A stretch of DNA of 17,585 nucleotides from a virus. Below the pieces are notes generated by a model. The model searched no databases. It was not told the origin of the DNA and saw only the letters and a list, made by a program, of their open reading frames with translations. Position 1 is the first letter of the stretch; every line of letters begins with the position of its first letter. Where the stretch lies: the UHGV virus genome UHGV-0376136; one strand, 5' to 3'. Positions 1-9,979 of the stretch are shown in pieces. The translations under genes were made by a program, and so were the position numbers.

Positions 1-2041
1 CTGCAGGTTCGGTATATTCCTCAATTACCTCAGTCGGCACCTGCTCGGTATACTCCTCCTCGACATCTTCAAGCTCTGCCTCATAAACAAAAAGCTGTTT
101 GCCTGCCTCGTCAAGACGCGGAGAACCATCCTCGTTAAAGACAAATACCTGGATAAGCTTAGGTGTCTGATACTCTTCCTGAACTACCCTCTTGATGCGT
201 TCTCCATCTTCTGTTTCTTCATCCACAAGTATTTCGCGCGTGGCCGTCATCATCACAGGTCGCTTTACTGTGCGGGTTTTTGTCACTTCCATCATGCGGC
301 TGACAGTGCGGGTTTTTGTTACTCGCTCCCCCTCATTGGTCCGCACTGAAATATATTGGTCTTCCCATTCGTCGTAACAGAGGAGCCCGAGACCGAAGCC
401 ATCAATGCCATGCGATGCAAACACCTCCTCCACGCGCTGCGCAATAAGGCCGAAGTGCCAGCGCGCACCGTCTTCGCCTTTTTGCGCAACCGCATCATCA
501 AACTTAAACCGCGTGCGCCAGCTGACTTCCTCCCAGGCATCGAGGACCACATCAGGGATCGCTTCCTTAATTGGCTTGTGATTGTCATCGGAGGTGTTAA
601 TCGCACCAGTACCAAAATAGGCAGTACGTCCTCGATATGAGGCTGAGCCATAATCGAACTGGTTATCGGCGCTCGGGCGCTGGGTGCAGTTATAGGTGAC
701 AATCCCGGCTTTTATCTCATAGTTACCTTGCCCATCTGTTGCACTACCACCGCTAACCACTACGCGAGCGTCAAAAGCAGAGCCAGCCCCACTGGACCGG
801 TATATTGTTTGCACCGTGCTTGCAATAGTTGGAGACCCTACTGACGTAAACGCCCCTGAGTCTTCTAATTGCAAAGATTTGGTGCTGAGCTTAACCAGGT
901 TGTGGAAAATGATGTGGTTCACTTCAACCAACGAACCGAGGGAAAGGACGCGGTCTATTTTTGGGCAGTCGACGGAAAGTACACGGCTGTCTTCACCAAA
1001 TACTGCCCCGCCATTCTGCGGGCCAAAGGCAATACCGGTTCGCCAGGTGCAGGCGCTACCCATGTTACCGACGCTAATTGCAGCATCAATTACGTCGCCG
1101 CGTTTTGCCTTGGTGCCGCCGATTTGCAGGCCGGTTCTGATGTTTGAGCTGGCACCCTCCGGAATGCCGACGTTGAATTCAGCCCCCGTGACATTGAGCG
1201 TATACATAGCCCCTGGGGTAAGCGTTCCGTAGAAATTACCACCAAAATAAGCCCCCTTAGCGCCAGCAAGCGATACTCCACCGTCTCCAGTTGAGGAGGT
1301 CGCAAAGCCGGTGACGCCTACATAGTTTCTGTCAGTATTTGTTGCATCAGTCTGACCAAGCTGCTCAAGGATGAATTCAGCAGCGTGGCGGCCGCCTTTA
1401 CATCCCGCCCCCCCGAATTTGTGATTCAAGAGGAATCCGTCAACCTTTGTTCCGGGAACCATGTCATCAACAGCATTGAAACGGTCATCGTCAATCCTGA
1501 TATAATTGAACTTGGCCGTGTTGACAGTGAGCCCGCTCCCGGTAATCGGCTCCGCAAGATGAACCCCGATCCCTCGGGTAATATCATCTCCGAATTTCTC
1601 TCCTGGCCGCCCCTGCAGAATTGAAAACTTATCCAGTCCTCGGCTCATTACCCCAGGACCTACTAATGCAGCGCCGCCCAGCGCAGCTAATTCAGCCCTT
1701 AACTGGTCTGGAGCATATTTCAGAACATCAGCAAAATAGAATTGTTGGGTGCCGTATGAATCGCGAATCTCCATGCTGTAATTTTGCACGGTGACGAATT
1801 TAACAATCTGACCGTTATAAACGGGGAATCCGCCAGCATTTATTCGCAATGGCTGAGGTACTGGAACATGGGTCCCATCTTCATTCTCAATATAAACCTG
1901 AATTTGGTTAGCAGGATTCGTAGGATCTGTATCCACTAGCCCAATAAAGATTTCTCCATTGGCAACAGCCTTAAATGCACGAGCCATAGTAAATGGCTGG
2001 CTAGGCATGGCGATAAGAACATTGGCTGCAATGTCTGTCAT
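1..2041 (-). CDS. Tailspike / tail fibre, 3'-partial (C-terminus beyond window start). P22 gp9-like N-terminal head-binding domain, a different Gly-rich receptor-binding region, and a C-terminal S74-type intramolecular chaperone domain.
   Basis: ATG at 2041..2039 (minus) after GGAG RBS; translation begins [56 protein letters not shown], matching my recollection of the P22 tailspike N-terminus. Frame checked at 2041, 1207 and 667 (all the same phase). No stop seen in my translation down to position 1, which explains its absence from the ORF track; track ORFs 319..702 and 1090..1305 are off-frame. C-terminal part has ...[34 protein letters not shown]...[14 protein letters not shown]..., resembling the endosialidase/T5 chaperone motif. 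Confidence 0.8.
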
Positions 2042-2098
2042 TTAATTTGCTCCAGATACAAGGAATCGCCGCAGCGTAGCTACGGTGAATTTTGGGCA

Positions 2099-2122
2099 TA
2101 AAAAAACCCAGCCGAAGCTGGG
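2099..2122 (-). terminator. Rho-independent terminator between ant and the tailspike gene
   Basis: Plus strand 2107..2122 cccagc-cgaa-gctggg perfect 6-bp stem with tetraloop, preceded on plus by an A6 run (a U-run on the minus-strand transcript); sits 20 nt after the ant stop. Confidence 0.65.
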
Positions 2123-2141: not shown

Positions 2142-3020
2142 TCAGTAGTTATGTACTGAAGGAGGTAATTCTTTATTCTTAAGTCTTATCCATGCGGAAA
2201 GATTCGTTGGTCCGTCTGGCTCATTAATATCAACATCTCGTGTGTGGTTTATTAAAACGTCTCTCGCCATTCCGATAACATACGAGAATTCATGACCGTA
2301 GTCGTAGCATCTGCCGGAATAGTTCGATTGAATTTGTTTTAGCGCCGGATACAGTTCGCGGAATAATGCCTGTGAACGGTTAGCATAATCCCATAGCCAT
2401 ACAAGGCTGTTTGCTTCTTTTGCAGAAAGCTCGTTGGTTTTCTTCTCTTGTTTGCCAATGAACTCACCTTCAAGCACTACCCTGTGGATGTACTCTACGG
2501 CCAGCGGGATTTGTTCAATTGAAAGCTCATCAATGCTGTCAATACCAAAACGCTGATGAACCATATTGTATGCATCGTCATAGCGAAGTCCTTTCTTTCC
2601 TACCAGCATGTTTACTGCATCGCGTAGCGGTGTTCTTTCCTCAACAGTGGTTTTCTTTCCTTTTACATACTCGCCATGTTTGCGAATTGAAGGCAGAACT
2701 TCTGCTGTTACCCACTTGCGGAATTTGTGCGGGACTGAACCTTTATTGACTGCATCGCGGCAGCGCAGAACCAATGTATACATACCTGATTCGCTCACAA
2801 TGCTTAGATTCTGCTCACCACCAAGGGTGTAACTTAAAGTTACTCCCTTTTCATCGTCATCAAGTGCAGTAAGCGCCTTGCGTGAGTTAGTCAAAGCTAA
2901 AGCATCACAAACATCTTTAGCTACAAACCACGGCTCGCCGCACTTGTTAATGACGCGAATTTCACTGTCGCCAAATTTGAAGATGGTGAAATCGTTTTGT
3001 GCCTTTGCTATACTTTTCAT
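2142..3020 (-). CDS. ant: Antirepressor Ant (Bro-N/AntA-type N-terminal domain), 292 aa
   Basis: Track ORF 2142..3086 trimmed to ATG at 3020 ([41 protein letters not shown]...[13 protein letters not shown]...[17 protein letters not shown]), colinear with my recollection of P22 Ant; the track start at 3086 is a GTG. Position after arc and before tailspike matches P22 immI. Confidence 0.85.
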
Positions 3021-3095
3021 GTCAATATTTCCTAAGCCGATTTGTTGATACCGAAGCCCTGACTGTTCCCGCAGTTGGGGCTTCACTGTTTTGAT
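3021..3095 (+). ncRNA. sar: Candidate sar-like antisense RNA covering the ant ribosome-binding site
   Basis: Plus-strand -10 TATACT (3009..3014) with weak -35 GTGAAA (2986..2991, 17-bp spacer) predicts a start near 3021, antisense to the ant start region. A plus-strand terminator-like hairpin follows. Arrangement analogous to P22 sar as I recall it; ends approximate. Confidence 0.3.
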
Positions 3096-3100
3096 TTCTT
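3053..3100 (+). terminator. Plus-strand terminator-like hairpin in the arc-ant spacer (proposed sar terminator)
   Basis: GAAGCCC (3053..3059) pairs with GGGCTTC (3078..3084); inner stem ACTG/CAGT; followed by T-rich actgttttgatttcttt. The minus-strand side is not T-rich, so it appears unidirectional. Confidence 0.4.
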
Positions 3101-3252
3101 TGCCGCATCAAGCATCACTTCTGAAAACGTGCGCTTGCCACTGAATACTCTTTCTCTTCTCAATTTTTCGTTCGTGCCAAATGATTCGCCATGAACAAAA
3201 TTTGGTCTTAAAATGGTAATCGCAATCTCTTTGACTACTGCATCCAAGCGAA

Positions 3253-3393
3253 TCACACCGTTATCCCCTCTCTCTTCAGGCTGTCCATCACCCGTTTAAT
3301 TACTTCTGCGCTAAATGAGCGACACTCTTCCTTTGCTTTCTCTTCAAGGATTTTTTCTAACTTCTCTGGCATACGCAGTGTTTTTACCTTCAT
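3253..3393 (-). CDS. arc: Arc-like ribbon-helix-helix repressor, 46 aa
   Basis: Not in ORF track (<60 aa). Minus-strand ATG at 3393 after GGAGGA RBS; translation MKVKTLRMPEKLEKILEEKAKEECRSFSAEVIKRVMDSLKREGITV, stop TGA at 3253..3255. Resembles P22 Arc as I recall it (...LRWPREVLDLVRKVAEENGRSVNSEIYQRVMESFKKEG...). Confidence 0.8.
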   Translation of the reverse strand: MKVKTLRMPEKLEKILEEKAKEECRSFSAEVIKRVMDSLKREGITV

Positions 3394-3405
3394 TGCATCC
3401 TCCGT

Positions 3406-3470
3406 TGTATGTGGTACGCATACATAGTATTTAGGTACGCATTGATAGTCAATAGATACCTACATATCCT
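3406..3470. promoter_or_regulatory. Divergent Pant/Pmnt promoter region with two palindromic operator candidates
   Basis: Minus-strand promoter: -35 TTGACT (plus 3447..3452), 17-bp spacer, -10 TACTAT (plus 3424..3429). Plus-strand promoter: -35 TTGATA (3442..3447), -10 TATCCT (3465..3470). Palindrome A: TGTATG-N7-CATACA (3406..3424). Palindrome B: TAGGTA-cgc-ATTGA-TAG-TCAAT-aga-TACCTA (3432..3462). Direct repeat GGTACGCAT at 3413..3421 and 3434..3442. Confidence 0.55.
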
Positions 3471-3498
3471 GTGGTAAAAAATTATTCAGGATGCGCCG

Positions 3499-3750
3499 AT
3501 GTCTGATCGTAAGTACAAAAACCCTCAAGTGAATCTGAGGCTTCCTGTAGAGATAAAGGAACGTCTTATTGAACTGGCTGAGGCTAATTCTCGTTCATTA
3601 AATGCTGAGATGGTCGCGGCACTTGAAGCATGGACCGAAAAAAATAAACACATTCAAGCACTAGACCTTGCAACTATAGCATCACGATTGATAGATCTTG
3701 AACACGATGTTGAGACGCTAAAGACCATGTATGCTAAGGATGAAAAATAA
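3499..3750 (+). CDS. mnt: Mnt-like ribbon-helix-helix repressor, 83 aa
   Basis: ATG 3499 with AGGA RBS 7 nt upstream; N-terminus NPQVNLRLPVEIKERLIELAEANSRSLNAEMVAALEAW fits the RHH beta-strand plus two helices; same length as P22 Mnt; divergent from arc across the operator region. Confidence 0.7.
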   Translation: MSDRKYKNPQVNLRLPVEIKERLIELAEANSRSLNAEMVAALEAWTEKNKHIQALDLATIASRLIDLEHDVETLKTMYAKDEK

Positions 3751-4286
3751 TGCTGCACACAATTCACTTCTTATGCCCTGTTAACACTGCCACTGTTGGG
3801 CAACTTCAGAACCACTGTCTCACCGCATTATCTCAAGGCGCAACTGAATTAAATATCCATATATCAAGTCAGGGAGGGGAAACTGCCGCTGGCTTTACTG
3901 CGTATAACTTTCTTAAGTCACTCCCTGTTACCGTTAGAACTCACAACATAAGCAATGTTGAATCCATAGCTAATATCGTTTTCCTGGCTGGCTCAGAACG
4001 TTTCGCAAACCCATTATCAAGATTCCTGTTACATCCTCTATTATGGGGCTTTGCCACCCCAGCCGCCGACCATGCCAGATTGAGAGAGTACGGGAAATGC
4101 CTCGATAACGATCTTGATCGCTTCGTTGAGACGTTCAATATCGACATCGGAACCCATATTAGGTGGGCATCCCTGATAGCAGACTCGACCATTTTGGATG
4201 CTAACAAGGCTCTTGAGCATGGCATAATTAATTCCATAAAAACTGCAAGGCTGGTATCCAATCAGGCAAACTGGTGGGTTGTTTGA
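3750..4286 (+). CDS. ClpP-like (S14-type, ClpP-fold) serine protease homologue, N-terminally truncated relative to ClpP, 178 aa
   Basis: Start ATG overlaps the mnt stop (TAATG at 3748..3752). By-eye alignment to E. coli ClpP: ISSQGGETAAGFTAY vs INSPGGVITAGMSIY; NVESIANIVFLAG vs QAASMGAFLLTAG (Ser aligned); PLSRFLLHP vs PNSRVMIHQP (His aligned); KALEHGIINSI vs EAVEYGLVDSI. Confidence 0.75.
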   Translation: MLHTIHFLCPVNTATVGQLQNHCLTALSQGATELNIHISSQGGETAAGFTAYNFLKSLPVTVRTHNISNVESIANIVFLAGSERFANPLSRFLLHPLLWGFATPAADHARLREYGKCLDNDLDRFVETFNIDIGTHIRWASLIADSTILDANKALEHGIINSIKTARLVSNQANWWVV

Positions 4287-4311
4287 TGGGTAAATCATGA
4301 TTACTCCTTAT

Positions 4312-4336
4312 AAAAAACCCACCTGAAGGTGGGTTT
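4312..4336. terminator. Bidirectional rho-independent terminator between the convergent ClpP-like and 322-aa genes
   Basis: cccacc-tgaa-ggtggg (4318..4333) flanked by A6 (4312..4317) and ttt (4334..4336); strong T-run in the minus direction, weaker in the plus direction. Confidence 0.65.
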
Positions 4337-4341
4337 CATAA

Positions 4342-5310
4342 TTAGATTTCTGGTTTCATTCTTCCGAAAACCTTTTCTATTCCTTTTTCGTATTCTTCTC
4401 TTGTCTCACTCATCGCTGCGACACCAAGAAGCTTACCGATATGCTGACGCAAAGCCTTGACACCAATTTCAGAAAGGAACAGATGCAACTTATCAGATTG
4501 TTTTCCGTTCTCGTCTCGGCTGGCTCGAATCTGTTCAAGGATTTTACCTTTACTCTTTGCTAGCGGGGTATATATCTGCATGTTGGTTAGCTGCCCAAAA
4601 CGAATAGGCCGTCCTTTCTCTGGCCTATTCAGGCCGTACAGTCGATACCACTCCTCGTATAGCTCATCTGGAAATTCCTTTTCATATTGACGAGCCTCTT
4701 CACGAACAAACGCTTTGAACTCGTCAATGACAGCCTGAACTTCTGGACGATAACCAGCAAGCGCATACGCAACCCCCTTAATTCCCGCCTTAGCGGAGGC
4801 ATTAATAAGTCTCTGTGCTGCGGCGGCTGCCTTTAACCGTGATTGTGGTAGATCGTCATTATCTTTGGCTTCTATTAGTGCCCTACCAATATCAACAATT
4901 GCTGTAATGTCATAACCTAACGCTTGATGAACGGTTTTAGACTTCGAAGTAAGTTGAAATTTATAGGGATTTTCCATTTTTCGCTGCAATTCTAGATCTC
5001 GGTATTTGCTCATATACTGAGCGCCAAGCAGTTGATCTAAATCCCTGGCATGTTCACCAATCCCTAGCAACTGAGATAATCCAGTTTTCGTAACAACGAC
5101 AGTTTTCGACTCGTCATCCAGTACATAACATTCAGCATCAATGCCAAAATCATCTAAAAAGTTACCACGATGAGTTGCCCTGAGAATCTTACTTTTCCAT
5201 CTTGCAGCAGCTGCTTTCTTTGCTATTTCAGAACGCTGCTCTTTAGTCAGCGACTTTGCGCGAGCGATCCCGCCCTTAGCTTTCCCTTCGCCACTTTTCT
5301 TTTCAGTCAT
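4342..5310 (-). CDS. Hypothetical protein, 322 aa, with basic Lys/Ala-rich N-terminal putative DNA-binding segment (possibly P63C-family; unverified)
   Basis: Track ORF 4342..5373 starts at a TTG with no RBS; ATG at 5310 is preceded by AAAGGTG. N-terminus MTEKKSGEGKAKGGIARAKSLTKEQRSEIAKKAAAARWKSKILRATHRGNF... Strong upstream promoter and operator repeats. Confidence 0.7.
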   Translation of the reverse strand: MTEKKSGEGKAKGGIARAKSLTKEQRSEIAKKAAAARWKSKILRATHRGNFLDDFGIDAECYVLDDESKTVVVTKTGLSQLLGIGEHARDLDQLLGAQYMSKYRDLELQRKMENPYKFQLTSKSKTVHQALGYDITAIVDIGRALIEAKDNDDLPQSRLKAAAAAQRLINASAKAGIKGVAYALAGYRPEVQAVIDEFKAFVREEARQYEKEFPDELYEEWYRLYGLNRPEKGRPIRFGQLTNMQIYTPLAKSKGKILEQIRASRDENGKQSDKLHLFLSEIGVKALRQHIGKLLGVAAMSETREEYEKGIEKVFGRMKPEI

Positions 5311-5402
5311 AATGCAAGCACCTTTGTTGTGATGTATGCTTGCATTATATGCACTGTACACACATACAAGCAAGCATAAAACTAAAACAAAATGCTTGCA
5401 TT
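5311..5402. promoter_or_regulatory. Promoter for the 322-aa gene embedded in four copies of an ATGCTTGC-core operator motif (two inverted pairs)
   Basis: Minus-strand -10 TATAAT (plus 5344..5349), 18-bp spacer, -35 TTGCTT (plus 5368..5373). Motif copies: 5311..5320 (aatgcaagca), 5337..5346 (tgcttgcatt), 5370..5377 (gcaagcat), 5392..5402 (atgcttgcatt). Confidence 0.6.
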
Positions 5403-5466
5403 ACAACCGCGCTGCTCCAACTACACATTATCATCTGGTATCCTGCTCAAAACTAAGGAGGTTGGT

Positions 5467-5787
5467 GTGTATATATCGCTATCTACCATTTTTTTCATCT
5501 GCTTAGCTATTTGGCTTTTAAGAATATGGCAGGATTGCTCTGTCAGCCATGCTGCTGCGGTGAGAAATAAAAACGCCCTCATAAAAGAAGCTGAAAACGT
5601 TGTCTTATCAATGGATCACCTTTCATGGACCGAGATGACTACAGGGCAACAAGAGGTTTATGAGTGTGCGATTGAGCGGTTAAGGCTGCTTAAGTCGTAC
5701 AAAAAGAACCACGCACCCGACTCATTCCCATTCCTGAAAGAATGGCCGAGATGGTATGACCCGAAAAAAGCAACCATCAACCGCTAA
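5467..5787 (+). CDS. Small single-pass membrane protein, 106 aa from GTG (131 aa if the ATG at 5392 is used)
   Basis: AAGGAGG (5455..5461) 5 nt upstream of GTG 5467; product begins VYISLSTIFFICLAIWLLRIW (hydrophobic helix) followed by a charged soluble domain. Ends 8 nt from the convergent gp16 stop. Confidence 0.5.
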   Translation: MYISLSTIFFICLAIWLLRIWQDCSVSHAAAVRNKNALIKEAENVVLSMDHLSWTEMTTGQQEVYECAIERLRLLKSYKKNHAPDSFPFLKEWPRWYDPKKATINR

Positions 5788-5795
5788 CCAACTTT

Positions 5796-7802
5796 TTACT
5801 GCTGGGCTTTCTCACTTGAAGCCTGAATTAGAGGTGTAAGAGTTTCAGATACCCGCCTGATCGCTCTATCATAAGCAGTACTTCCTTTTGGTGTGTTTGC
5901 TAACTTTAGTAATGCGTTCCTCATCGCGCGTGACTCATAGCCCCTGCCAGCCATACCGATACCAGCTCCAACTGCCGCAACTTTTGCAAACATTGGATTT
6001 GTAACAGATGCAAGAGCTGTTATCAGCGCTGCTGGACCAGCTACCATTTGCCCTGTTAGTGGGCTTGCGGCAGCAGTAGCTGCCTGTCTAGTGGAATCAA
6101 GATATTTCATTATCCCATCAAGCTGTTTCCCATGCTCTCCTCTGAAGAACGTCTCAGCCTGCTTCCGATTCCTTTTCATTTCATTAATAAACTTCTCAAC
6201 GCTAAGCTTTCCTGAATCGCTTGTCGCCTTATCCATTGCACGCTGAACAAGTGCTGCTCTAGCATTTTGACGCCCACTATCATCAAGCAATCGATAAAGT
6301 TGCGCCCTTTCCGCTGGGCTTTGGCTGAATACTAGTTTAGTGACATCTTCTGGCGTTGTTTTACCACTCTGAATAGCTTTTTGGACACGTGTATTGCTCA
6401 TCATGTCGTTGAACTTTGCCCAAGAACGATCAACACGCAACATGTTTTGCGCTTCCTTCGCACCTAGTTTTGCGCCAACCGCTTTTTTCATGTCTGTTGT
6501 GTATGCGTTATAAACAGACTGCGCAGCTTTCTCCAGCGTATCTCTATCGACCTCGTCAGGTGCTGCCATAAAGCGCTTACGTAAGTTTGTACGGTTTTCT
6601 CTAGCTAATTGCAGGTTATTTGGACCGCTGGTGATGTCATTTCTAAACTGTTGAAGGACAGAAACAGCTGAGCGGTCTTGCGATACTCCTGGGCGAGTTA
6701 ACTTGGAAATCTGCTCATCAATTGCTTTCACTGTTCCAGTGATGTCAACAGGAGTATCCCCCATCAAACTGATGATCCTGTCGTACCGCTTGCCAGCAGC
6801 CTGAATAAATTGCTGCTGACCACGAGTAGCTGATTGGTAAAGTTGTGCGTCAGATATTCCACCAACATTATCGCTAAATGTTCTAACTAAATCTTCCCTG
6901 GCCTTTTGCTGTGCATTTCTTATCCCACCTGTTCCGGCTATTGGGATTCGCTCAGCCATAGCTCGTGCTTGCTTACCAATATTTGTTCCCGGTTCCACAA
7001 GATCTGTTGTCATCAGTGGCAAGTTGTTCTGCTTGGCAAAGTCAATCTGAGCTTGTTTTTCAGGAGCAATCTTACCCATAGCAGAACGAGACACTGCGCT
7101 TGCGGTGTTTTCTACACCCTTCAGTACCCCACCAAGACCAGCAGAAATTGCAGTTTGAACTGGATTAACATTCTCACCGCCAGCGATCTTTGTGGCACCC
7201 TGTAAAGCTAAATCAGTAGCGCCTGATTTTAGTGTTGCACCTACAACAGACGCAGCTCTACCTGCTGGAGTGAATGCAAGAGCATTTGCCAAGAATGACG
7301 TTATATCCTGCGGTGACAAACCAGGCTTGTTAAGTGCATATTCCCCTGAAGGAAGGGTGACTATGGAATTTCCCTTCTCATCCTTCCGGATTTTCCCGCC
7401 AATACTTTGCAGTATTTTCTCCTGTGAAGCGTCGGAACCAAATAGCTGCCCCAATCCAGCACGCAGCGCATCAGTGCTTAAGCTATTAAGCTCTGGAGCA
7501 GACCCAACATTTTGCAGTCTCTCCATTTCTGGTGTCATTCGGCTTTCACCGGTAACGGCATCGCGCATTGCAGCACCTAAAACAGCCCCTTGCTCAGCAG
7601 ATCGATCTAGTCCTTCCTTCTGCTGAGTGGCAAGCTGTGCATATCCTGATGCAAGTGAGTTGTCTGCTGGCGATTGCTGAACACCTTGTTGTGTTGGTGC
7701 TGACTGACCAGCAAAATACTCATCAATGGCGGTGCCAATATCTTCGGTGCTCGTACCATCAGGAAAGGTAAATGTCTTACCGTTTGCAGTTACTTTCATC
7801 AT
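5796..7802 (-). CDS. 16: Ejection (E) protein, P22 gp16 analogue, 668 aa
   Basis: Last gene of the late operon before the accessory region; 4-nt start overlap with the upstream gene; long Gly/Ala/Gln-rich protein; assigned by synteny with P22 order 7-20-16. Confidence 0.8.
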
Positions 7803-9265
7803 TCCACCGTAAATTGAATGCCTGATTTTGAGGTATATGATCCGGATTGACTCTGCTGCTGTTGGGTATTTGTCGGTTGTTGGCTATTGCTCTGTTGTTG
7901 ACTATTTGCAGCACTTGAAACCACCAAAGCATCATAAACGCGACCAGACTGACCACGTAATGAGTTATATTGGCCCTGCATTTTTCGCATCTTTGTTTCA
8001 GTAGCAGCCTTGGAATCACCGGGCTGAGGCAGGTACATTTTGGAATACTCCTGCATCTCTGGCAGAGTAATTGCTGCACCTGTTTCTGGGCGCAAAATTG
8101 CATACAAGGCGTCTCTCGCATTTACCATATATTGCTGCTCCGCTGGTGATAGGCTTAAATTTGCAATAGTCCCATCACCAAGAGAGCGATTTATTAATGC
8201 AACTCGCTTAGGGTCAATGCTTTTACTAAGCTGATTCATTGAGTCCATTGAATCTTTTAATCGCAAAGCAAATCCTGCCGCCTTCTTGGAACCCTCATTA
8301 GCCTTATCTATGATGCTTTGCGCTTGTGGCAAGCTAATTGGTTTAATGCCATCACCAGATATAGGTTGGTTTAGTTTTCCGGCTTCCTCGCTGCCATCGG
8401 TGTAATACTTAGTTACCGAGCCATCAGGATTGGTTTCAACCTTAAGTAATTTCTTAGCATTGGGATTAATTCCCGCCGCTGCCGCAAATGCTGCTGCACC
8501 ATCTGGATCCGCCTTTAACATTTGCGCGTACTGATTGTAATTCTGCATTGCGGCTGTTGGTGCATATGCTGACGTTAACGCATTTGCTCGGCTAATATCC
8601 TGCCCTCTCGCCTGAAGTGCTTCGCTGGCCTGATTGCTGCGGATTGTCTCTGCAAGTTTTCCGCGATCAATCTCACGACCAGCCATCTTATCCTGAACAT
8701 TGAAGTAATCAATCGGACCAAGCGCGGCCATTCCAAGGTGATCAACAAACTCACCAAATCCTGAAGGATTCTGCTTATACATCTGAGCAACGCTGTTAGG
8801 GTCAACACCGACGCGAGTCAGTTCCTTGGCGTTGTTTTGCAGCCATGATTGCATTGCTTCTGGAGACGATGACGCAAGGCGTGCGCCAGCCGCTAAGGTG
8901 CCGATAGAATTACGCTGATCTTCATCAATGAATCCCATGCCTTTACGAACGGATTCAATCTGGTCTGGATATTGAGTAGCCAACTGACGCAAAGCACCGC
9001 GATCACCAGACGCATAAGCATTAGCGTATGCCTGCTGAAATTCTTTCTGCCGCTGATCCTGCTTTGCCTGCTGAAACACCCCCGCAATGCCTGAAAGGCC
9101 TTGCAAAGCAGTCAGCCCAACATTGTTAGCGCCTGAACGCTCAATATCATTGTTCTGCCTGATAAGCTGAAGCGTATTGCCGATGTCATTTACGCTCGGA
9201 GCGTTTGAGTTGACGCCGCCGATACCAGCCAACAATCCGCCATTTGATCCTTGCCAAGTAGCCAT
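7799..9265 (-). CDS. 20: Ejection (E) protein, P22 gp20 analogue, 488 aa
   Basis: Synteny and size (P22 gp20 is about 470 aa as I recall); Gln/Ala-rich; ORF from the track. Confidence 0.8.
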
Positions 9266-9274
9266 GATTACCCC

Positions 9275-9979
9275 TTAAAACAACGATCCAAGCAGGCCAA
9301 GTCCGCCGCCAATTGCCGCACCTAATCCAGTGCCAAGTCCGGGAACAATAGAGCCAATCGCAGCGCCAGTCATAGCCCCTGAAGCTCCGCCGCTAATTGC
9401 TGTCTGAAGACCTGATGGTTTATTGGCATTAGCAGCGGCAAGAGCCGCACTTTGCTGCGAAATCTGACTCATGTTGTTGGCATATGTCTGCCCGGCGTTT
9501 GCCTGACCTTGCAGTGCGCCAAGACCAATATTTGCCAGATTCTGGTAGTTGTTCATCTGACCAGACAGCCACTGCTGACCAAGCGTTGGTGCGATTGTTG
9601 CTAACTGATTACCGGTTGCAGTGGAACCCAATCCACCTGTTGCTTCCGCTGCAGCCAGACTCTGATAGCGAGCCTGACCAGCAAGATCTTTGTACTGCTG
9701 AGAGTTGTAATACTGGTTAAGTGCCTGACCTTGCCCCTGAAGAGAGGAAAGATTCTGCAATTGTGATACGTACTGCTGAGCGAGTGGCGTGAACGGAGCA
9801 AGGTTTTTCATGATCGTCTGCCACTGCTTATTCTGCAGGTCTGCGGCATACTTCTGAGCTTCTGCGGCATACTTTGCGCTTTTATCAGAGCTGCCACTTT
9901 TCCCGCCTTTCCCGCCTTTTTCAGGGCACCAAGGTTCCTCGACGAGCAGTTTTCTGCCCAGCTTAAATGCATATAACAT
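9275..9979 (-). CDS. 7: Ejection (E) protein, P22 gp7 analogue, 234 aa
   Basis: Synteny and size (P22 gp7 is about 229 aa as I recall); Gly-rich C-terminus GLGTGLGAAIGGGLGLLGSLF. Confidence 0.8.
   Translation of the reverse strand: MLYAFKLGRKLLVEEPWCPEKGGKGGKSGSSDKSAKYAAEAQKYAADLQNKQWQTIMKNLAPFTPLAQQYVSQLQNLSSLQGQGQALNQYYNSQQYKDLAGQARYQSLAAAEATGGLGSTATGNQLATIAPTLGQQWLSGQMNNYQNLANIGLGALQGQANAGQTYANNMSQISQQSAALAAANANKPSGLQTAISGGASGAMTGAAIGSIVPGLGTGLGAAIGGGLGLLGSLF

Follow-up and report, generated by a model that had tools for sequence, protein, structure and literature searches.

A ClpP paralogue that lacks the N terminus of the canonical subunit is known from the fish pathogen Pseudomonas plecoglossicida, where PpClpP1 (structure 9UXT) was characterized in a drug-target study that leaves phages unmentioned (PMC12900304). 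Here we analyze a protein of the same type that is encoded by a prophage. The DNA examined, UHGV virus genome UHGV-0376136 (17,585 nucleotides (nt), referred to below as the window), comprises the late and immI region of a P22-like (Lederbergvirus) Escherichia coli prophage, and the gene of interest encodes a ClpP-like protein of 178 amino acids (aa) whose start codon overlaps the stop codon of the repressor gene mnt. With PpClpP1 the protein type was already known; the novelty lies in its apparent existence as a widespread moron of prophages and in the coupling to Mnt. In the literature that we searched, no description of a phage-borne copy or of the pairing with mnt was found, and the E212 genome paper omits the gene. 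In databases it is annotated as “ATP-dependent Clp protease proteolytic subunit”, as “head maturation protease” or as “hypothetical”.

PpClpP1 assembles into a homo-tetradecamer with an axial pore of 42.7 Å, shows a peptidase activity 13-fold below that of its canonical paralogue, does not bind ClpX, and alone degrades neither fluorescein isothiocyanate (FITC)-casein nor GFP-ssrA (PMC12900304). Together with the canonical ClpP (ClpP2) it forms a stable hetero-tetradecamer, which binds ClpX and is more active (PMC12900304). Its catalytic triad is described as Ser-His-Pro, with Ser and His essential and the third residue dispensable; Listeria ClpP1 likewise lacks the Asp and has Asn instead (PMC12900304). 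The phage protein belongs to the same length class (178 versus 183 aa), starts at strand beta-1 without axial loop or helix A, and keeps Ser and His, with a non-acidic residue in the third triad position and the motifs THN..VES and RFL.HP. The two differ in that third residue, which is Pro in PpClpP1 and Ser in the phage protein, and in their setting, the gene for PpClpP1 being chromosomal and located beside KGG and DUF6555 genes. Oligomeric state, activity and behavior with a ClpP partner are known for PpClpP1 only, whereas the phage protein is known from its sequence and a predicted structure.

Other described systems resemble the prophage gene in part. In two-paralogue systems such as Listeria ClpP1/ClpP2, Mycobacterium ClpP1P2 and P. 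aeruginosa ClpP1/ClpP2, a weak or atypical paralogue becomes active in a mixed 14-mer with a canonical partner. Those paralogues are cellular and full-length, whereas here the prophage would supply the atypical subunit and the host the canonical one. A phage-borne ClpP fold without ClpX-docking elements is also found in the ClpP-related prohead proteases (NF045542, phrog_94), which lie in the head module between portal and capsid genes and usually carry a scaffold or capsid extension; the window gene, in contrast, is short and solitary, runs antisense to the late genes, and is found in a type of phage for which a protease is unnecessary. In its logic only, the locus recalls the cI-rexA-rexB operon of lambda, insofar that a gene travels with the maintenance repressor and ClpP-dependent proteolysis would be the target. 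RexB, whose gene is transcribed together with cI and which reportedly blocks ClpP (PMC10286901), is however a membrane protein, unrelated in sequence, and a reported inhibitor. Modulation of ClpCP by an adaptor-like phage protein has also been described (PMC6873191).

Fold and catalytic residues of the phage protein

The earlier note on this DNA, made from the sequence without database searches, had proposed a ClpP fold, and profile and structure searches bear this out. The Pfam model CLP_protease (PF00574) scored 46.7 bits (cutoff 20.2) over residues 24-165, with the match starting at profile position 37. In NCBIfam we obtained sub-threshold matches only, to cellular ClpP models (22-41 bits against cutoffs of 228-361, including 22 versus 308.6 for TIGR00493 and 33.7 versus 249 for PRK00277) and to the ClpP-related head-maturation model. 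AlphaFold, given 42 homologues, predicted the ClpP alpha/beta fold with its handle helix at a predicted local distance difference test (pLDDT) of 93.9 and a predicted template-modelling score (pTM) of 0.90. When this model was compared with the PDB by Foldseek, 9uxt_A came out on top (template-modelling score (TM) 0.93, root-mean-square deviation 1.6 Å, 38% identity), followed by many canonical ClpPs at TM ~0.83 and ~20% identity, among them 1yg6 (TM 0.83). Structures of two-paralogue systems (4ryf, 4u0h) were also among the best fold matches. Sequence search gave the same ranking, with 9UXT at E 4.6e-35 over residues 3-175 and Mycobacterium ClpP1 next at 1.6e-8, and a fold search of BFVD yielded no viral match above 24% identity.

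By full-length homology and shared derived features the 178-aa protein is, as far as sequence and predicted structure can tell, a member of the ClpP superfamily and of its PpClpP1-type clade. A profile search of 1.8 billion representatives returned 221 clusters at E <= 1e-30, mostly of 180-200 aa, and the clade is therefore a sizeable family of short ClpPs. Compared with the 79% identical copy in locus L046 (L numbers are our handles for loci), the gene shows a dN/dS of 0.07, i.e. strong purifying selection; the ratio was obtainable for two pairs only, as dS was saturated beyond the closest comparisons.

Residues were mapped onto E. coli ClpP with hhalign/profile and MAFFT alignments, using an E. 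coli sequence consistent with the 1tyf coordinates. The Ser and His motifs singled out in the earlier note hold up: Ser72 (codon 3963-3965, “VESIAN”) aligns with Ser97 and His95 (codon 4032-4034, “FLLHP”) with His122 of E. coli ClpP, both residues are invariant in the 42 homologues, and the GG of the oxyanion loop is likewise invariant. The triad is nevertheless incomplete, for the catalytic Asp171 is replaced by Ser146 (codon 4185-4187), and the 42 family sequences display Ala (20), Ser (19), Gly (2) or Thr (1) in this column. Neither this substitution nor the polar docking pocket described below was mentioned in the earlier note. Asn161 (“GIINSI”) was considered as the third triad residue and rejected, the alignments putting Asp171 in “ERDRF”, opposite Ser146. 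In PpClpP1 the residue at the Asp171 position is Pro150 by HMMER alignment versus Pro151 in PMC12900304, while Ser73, His96 and the other residues agree; this is probably a numbering slip that leaves the conclusions unaffected.

Residue 1 of the phage protein aligns with residue 24 of mature E. coli ClpP, and the axial loop and helix A are therefore missing. The N-terminal truncation noticed earlier is thus real, and with it the loss of elements that engage ClpX and ClpA, although the count of about 30 residues has to be replaced by 23 (mature) or 37 (precursor). The pocket that receives the IGF/IGL loops of ClpX and ClpA in E. coli ClpP, which we take to consist of Y60, Y62, F82, I90 and L114, reads N35, H37, S57, H65 and N87 here, and is polar in most of the family. 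The protein has the fold, the Ser/His motifs and the GG oxyanion-loop motif in common with canonical ATP-dependent ClpP (peptidase family S14), but Asp171, the axial loop and helix A, and the hydrophobic pocket are all absent, and the NCBIfam scores stay far below their cutoffs. Judged from these alignments, the protein appears to keep what is needed for catalysis and for the ring and handle architecture, and to have lost the elements that meet an unfoldase.

A subunit of this make-up might act as a stand-alone, ungated peptidase whose own wide-pore 14-mer degrades peptides or unfolded proteins, for instance phage-injected or nascent ones, independently of host ClpP and of any ATPase. The homo-tetradecamer of PpClpP1, with its wide axial pore and its Ser/His-dependent peptidase activity, would fit such a role, as would the loss of all unfoldase-docking features in a family that keeps Ser72 and His95 invariant. 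However, the 13-fold deficit of PpClpP1 relative to canonical ClpP speaks against it, and the proposal in the earlier note that the protein acts alone is weakened because PpClpP1 by itself is a poor peptidase and leaves both FITC-casein and GFP-ssrA undegraded. We therefore regard a stand-alone peptidase as unlikely.

Coupling to mnt and distribution among phages

The two open reading frames (ORFs) are arranged as initially described, with mnt and the ClpP-like gene overlapping in the sequence TAATG (Table 1). The ClpP-like ORF has no start codon further upstream. An identical TAATG junction is present in 34 related loci, whose ClpP-like copies are 98-100% identical with the exception of L046 (79%), and the overlap is therefore not a product of chance. 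At the Shine-Dalgarno-like motif (Table 1), the sequence GGATGA(A/T)AAATAATG is also conserved across the loci of the E. coli clade, L046 having GGATAAT. Because the genes overlap, with no space for a terminator or promoter between them, expression of the ClpP-like gene should follow that of mnt. In P22, Mnt is made in the lysogen and keeps Pant off, and Arc shuts both promoters in lytic growth. By analogy, the ClpP-like protein would be expressed along with Mnt, i.e. in the lysogen. The gap between arc and mnt (105 bp) contains two face-to-face promoter-like sites plus repeats, and resembles the Pant/Pmnt layout of P22 in outline, as a pattern match only. Downstream, 28 nt separate the end of the ClpP-like ORF from a hairpin that is common to this gene and the convergent P63C-domain gene.

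A megablast search with window positions 3400-4400 delimited a cassette that is shared among phages, the matches starting at query positions 311-331 and stopping at 934-940. The base composition of the cassette is not foreign-looking (G+C fraction 0.42-0.45, the same as in the flanks). DNA identity to other phages starts only ~40 nt before the mnt stop because the Mnt variants share only their C terminus. We distinguished 13 variants among the Mnt partners, with at least 5 N-terminal (DNA-binding) types and 34-99% identity, and only the C-terminal “ETLK..Y.KD.K” is common to them; variants M03 and M06 start with what is presumably the N-terminal sequence of P22 Mnt. The mnt of the window is a 98% DNA match to the CUS-3 gene annotated as mnt, and in CUS-3 this same mnt is followed by other genes, the ClpP-like gene being missing. 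As a side observation, CUS-3 (L003, 4100-4629) has two mnt-type genes where the ClpP-like gene would be, and two or three such genes stand in tandem upstream of the ClpP-like gene in L033 and L035 (in L035 with matches at -765, -535 and -242), which looks like a stacking of repressor specificities.

Copies of at least 79% identity were examined in 6 deposited phages, ~35 IMG/VR loci and 128 of 5426 complete E. coli genomes (2.4%). All copies in these genomes are chromosomal and nearly always annotated beside an Arc-family gene, and the ORF is intact in 126 E. coli genomes. In the E. coli clade ant lies on the other strand wherever the sequence extends far enough, and arc is present in most loci. 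The ant-arc-mnt-clpP module also occurs in lambdoid PhiR12 phages, within the tail operon between tail genes K and L, and the immI-type module therefore moves between phage morphotypes as a unit. In PhiR12_1 (L002, locus 3565-5577), a lambdoid siphovirus, the order between K and L is ant, a small ORF, mnt and the ClpP-like gene.

Besides E. coli, the gene is found, under strong purifying selection, in prophages of Klebsiella, Proteus, Pantoea, Citrobacter and others. Copies of 50-74% identity come from Klebsiella, Leclercia, Citrobacter, Proteus, Pantoea, Rahnella, Enterobacter and a betaproteobacterial metagenome-assembled genome (MAG), and homologues of mnt, arc and ant were not found within 4 kb in any of 45 such loci. 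These relatives are solo genes with a Shine-Dalgarno sequence of their own, antisense to the surrounding late genes, and most are without a same-strand upstream ORF near the start. In about 24 of the loci the gene adjoins spanin/lysis genes, and in most of these it converges on the spanin gene and has terminase genes at its other flank. In others the gene sits between a tape-measure gene and a baseplate-hub or DNA-circularisation gene (L060, L066 and L009 were scanned, whereas L065 and L082 were placed in this type of site by their matching ORF layout), and the remaining loci have tail-fibre/invertase genes (L087, L090), an N-like antiterminator (L084, Proteus-type) or a holin (L073) as neighbors. 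The pairing of mnt and protease, suggested earlier as a feature that might be conserved, thus holds in the E. coli clade, with its 34 TAATG loci, and fails in these relatives, where none of the 45 loci has mnt.

The Pseudomonas clade and one Massilia copy are chromosomal. The idea that PpClpP1 itself is a prophage gene was rejected, in view of a conserved chromosomal neighborhood with KGG stress-protein and DUF6555 genes in several Pseudomonas. In loci L101-L107 (~7000-9350), genes for KGG-repeat stress proteins and a DUF6555 gene flank the PpClpP1-type gene and hint at a stress-response setting not discussed in the published study. Family members also occur in MAGs labelled Actinomycetota (the L007/L013 set; 48% identity, beside histidinol dehydrogenase) and Candidatus Nitrosotenuis (34%), which may reflect either a truly broad distribution or mis-binned contigs.

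Across the family there are at least 5 kinds of insertion site. Because the gene is present or absent among related phages (CUS-3 is without it, as are most E. coli genomes), occupies varied sites and runs antisense to late genes, its status as a phage moron is strongly supported by comparative context, in line with the earlier suggestion: it appears to be a solitary and dispensable gene that moves among unrelated sites and among phage types and stays outside late transcription. Its antisense orientation and its coupling to mnt further suggest transcription apart from the late operon, in the prophage state.

The constant company of mnt in the E. coli clade could also mean that the protease is a dedicated part of the immI circuit, removing leaked or incoming Ant, or Arc or Mnt, and thereby securing lysogeny against heterologous P22-like phages. 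In this clade the gene always lies behind mnt and beside arc-ant, irrespective of Mnt type (at least 5) and of phage morphotype (two). Yet the 45 of 45 loci of the more distant relatives occupy unrelated moron sites without any immI gene nearby, and chromosomal relatives exist in Pseudomonas and Massilia. A protease dedicated to immI is disfavored because most of the family lives without immI, and we consider it very unlikely; more generally, a function specific to this circuit is unlikely because the link to mnt holds only in one clade.

The same distribution bears on a reading as a toxin-antitoxin-like pair, in which the 83-aa ribbon-helix-helix (RHH) protein would be an antitoxin that neutralizes a protease toxin. 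The RHH gene comes first, stop and start codons overlap, and there are weak matches of the FitA-like (4e-4) and RelB-like (2.5e-3) kind. The RHH protein is, however, a typical Mnt, encoded divergently from arc-ant by DNA that is common with CUS-3 mnt. The obligate pairing of a type II toxin-antitoxin system is absent, insofar that Mnt partners of 34-99% identity are freely interchanged and most of the family, including the 45 loci lacking mnt, arc and ant, has no RHH neighbor. A PADLOC-DB v2 scan of the ClpP-like protein and five neighbors gave no defence-model match at E <= 0.01. Taken together, a toxin-antitoxin pair is highly improbable.

A last identity to be considered is that of a leftover or misplaced prohead protease, or of a decaying gene without function. 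The best PHROG match is phrog_94 (“head maturation protease”, 5e-21), and one GenBank record is so annotated. P22-type capsids mature without a protease. The score for NF045542 is 49.7 bits against a cutoff of 120, viral structures in BFVD are all at or below 24% identity, and the gene lies between mnt and the P63C-domain gene, outside the head module and on the strand opposite to the late genes from portal to gp16. Moreover, the L094 prophage encodes, besides the short ClpP-like gene, a distinct prohead protease of ClpP type (284 aa) within the head module, and the two ClpP-fold genes in prophages of this type evidently have different jobs. Decay is opposed by the low dN/dS and by the intact ORF in E. 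coli genomes. As the earlier note had argued, a prohead protease identity is for practical purposes refuted, and a remnant or decaying gene is scarcely credible. In L094-L096 (Leclercia and related; locus 43-897, 6001-6540) the short gene lies antisense between spanin and terminase genes.

Proposed partnership with host ClpP

Among the many regulators under ClpXP and ClpAP control in E. coli are RpoS and ssrA-tagged proteins, and these proteases also act on phage proteins such as lambda O and on abortive-infection antitoxins. On balance, and mainly by analogy with PpClpP1, we lean towards the reading that the prophage gene encodes an accessory ClpP subunit, expressed in the lysogen, which partners with host ClpP and modulates the output of these proteases. 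The protein would be made together with Mnt from the mnt operon, and, following the P22 paradigm, Arc would shut off Pmnt, and hence the ClpP-like gene, in lytic growth. As in the solved homologue, truncated subunits may form rings that stack on canonical host ClpP rings, the host ring contributing the docking face for ClpX and ClpA. The resulting mixed 14-mer would shift ClpXP and ClpAP output, upwards if the homologue is a guide, and the payoff could lie in host fitness or in a changed turnover of proteins, whether of the host or of an incoming phage. Our results thus suggest that the prophage may retune host protein degradation. If so, all ClpXP and ClpAP targets could be shifted at once by a prophage-encoded ClpP ring.

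The earlier note had left open whether the protein co-assembles with host ClpP or poisons it. Co-assembly receives indirect support from the hetero-tetradecamer of PpClpP1. Poisoning would correspond to a dominant-negative subunit that joins host ClpP, lowers ClpXP and ClpAP activity and stabilizes labile proteins such as antitoxins or phage regulators, in the manner of RexB, which is encoded in the cI operon and is reported to block ClpP. The missing Asp and docking pocket and the intrinsic weakness of PpClpP1 would agree with this, as would the consideration that a mixed 14-mer would give ClpX one docking face instead of two. However, the complex of PpClpP1 with ClpP2 is more active, both as a peptidase and with ClpX, and retained catalysis is favored over a pure decoy because Ser and His are invariant and purifying selection is strong. 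A dominant-negative role is, in our judgment, distinctly unlikely. For exclusion, defence or repressor turnover, the functions put forward originally, we found no support: PADLOC gave no match in the scan above, and no paper on the gene was found in the literature searched.

The case for an accessory subunit should be interpreted with some caution, since several observations weigh against it. PpClpP1 is only 38% identical to the phage protein and is a chromosomal, non-phage Pseudomonas gene next to KGG stress genes, so its behavior with a partner may not apply to the phage protein. With ClpX, the mixed complex is described as slightly more active (PMC12900304). The promoter and operator assignments are consensus matches, with 4 promoter-like sites versus 3.0 in shuffled sequence. 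A terminator scan of the plus strand made no call after the ClpP-like gene, the T-run of the hairpin being on the minus strand only. Finally, the effects of phiv205-1 on biofilm and adhesion were measured for the whole prophage, and none was tied to the ClpP-like gene.

A bolder and more tentative version of the accessory-subunit reading, possible but short of probable in our view, is that temperate phages of Enterobacterales spread a “plug-in” ClpP subunit that, once made in the lysogen (here from the promoter that also serves mnt), stacks on host ClpP and reprograms ClpXP and ClpAP to the advantage of the prophage. That advantage could be a faster removal of replication or antirepressor proteins of superinfecting phages, or altered stress or virulence regulons. 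If true, the subunit would represent a novel class of lysogenic-conversion factor that acts by hybridizing with a core machine of the host. The link between PpClpP1 and the phage branch gives a testable hypothesis on prophage control of a central host protease, for which a structure, assays and an inhibitor (bortezomib) are already in hand from PpClpP1.

The surrounding prophage region

The genes for portal, scaffold, coat, gp4, gp10, gp26 and DNA transfer occupy the minus strand from 17511 down to 5796 and are 95-97% matches to phages such as IME10. The immI module lies at the left of the window, with arc, a 57-aa ORF and ant on the minus strand and mnt on the plus strand. Table 1 lists the features of this module and of the cassette.

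Table 1. Positions of genes and candidate signals in and around the immI module of the window
Feature	Positions	Strand	Remarks
ant antirepressor	2142..3086	-	Bro-N and P22_AR_C domains, Pfam 8.6e-20 and 7.7e-30; phrog_245 2e-114
57-aa ORF between arc and ant	3083..3256	-	phrog_17642 1.3e-43, function unknown
arc (46 aa)	3253..3393	-	First gene of leftward antirepressor operon; Pfam Arc 2.9e-9
Operator-like repeats	3413..3466		Two 21-nt direct repeats (GGTACGCAT...) and an 18-nt inverted repeat centered near 3447; putative operator function
Candidate Pant	3424..3452	-	-35 TTGACT, 17 nt, -10 TACTAT; -35 overlaps that of Pmnt; consensus scan
Candidate Pmnt	3442..3470	+	-35 TTGATA, 17 nt, -10 TATCCT; consensus scan, 9/12 matches; assigned by analogy with P22 Pmnt
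mnt, 83-aa ribbon-helix-helix repressor	3499..3750	+	First gene of rightward operon, divergent from arc-ant as in P22 immI; Pfam Arc 3.1e-10
Shared cassette	3710..4336	+	Last ~40 nt of mnt, ClpP-like gene and hairpin; 98-99% identical in phages with different mnt N-terminal parts
AAGGA, Shine-Dalgarno-like motif	3736..3740	+	9 nt before the ClpP-like ATG, within the last mnt codons
TAATG stop/start overlap	3748..3752	+	mnt TAA 3748-3750, ClpP-like ATG 3750-3752, one base in common; translational coupling
ClpP-like gene, 178 aa	3750..4286	+	PpClpP1-type, N-terminally truncated; Pfam CLP_protease 4.3e-12
Hairpin, 9 bp, G+C-rich	4315..4336		Between convergent ClpP-like and P63C genes; RNA fold of 4284-4345 -17.3 kcal/mol, z -2.6
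P63C-domain gene, 343 aa	4342..5373	-	Convergent with ClpP-like gene; Pfam 7.7e-14; phrog_2384, function unknown

The 57-aa ORF overlaps the stop codon of arc, and several related loci, which differ in their ant alleles, carry it 100% conserved. P22 is not known to have a gene between arc and ant. The P63C-domain gene, which stands where P22 has sieA, is probably a second accessory gene of the variable kind, because its alleles differ between related loci (100%, 78% or ~55% identity) or the gene is missing. Between it and the gp16-like DNA-transfer gene, on the strand opposite to the late genes, a 131-aa ORF (5392-5787, plus strand; phrog_10450, function unknown) displays a hydrophobic N-terminal stretch. 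To the left of ant (window 1-2100, minus strand) there is no long closed ORF, as would be expected if a tailspike gene extended beyond the left end. In a related E. coli prophage the region left of ant encodes a “phage head-binding domain” protein and an HNH endonuclease.

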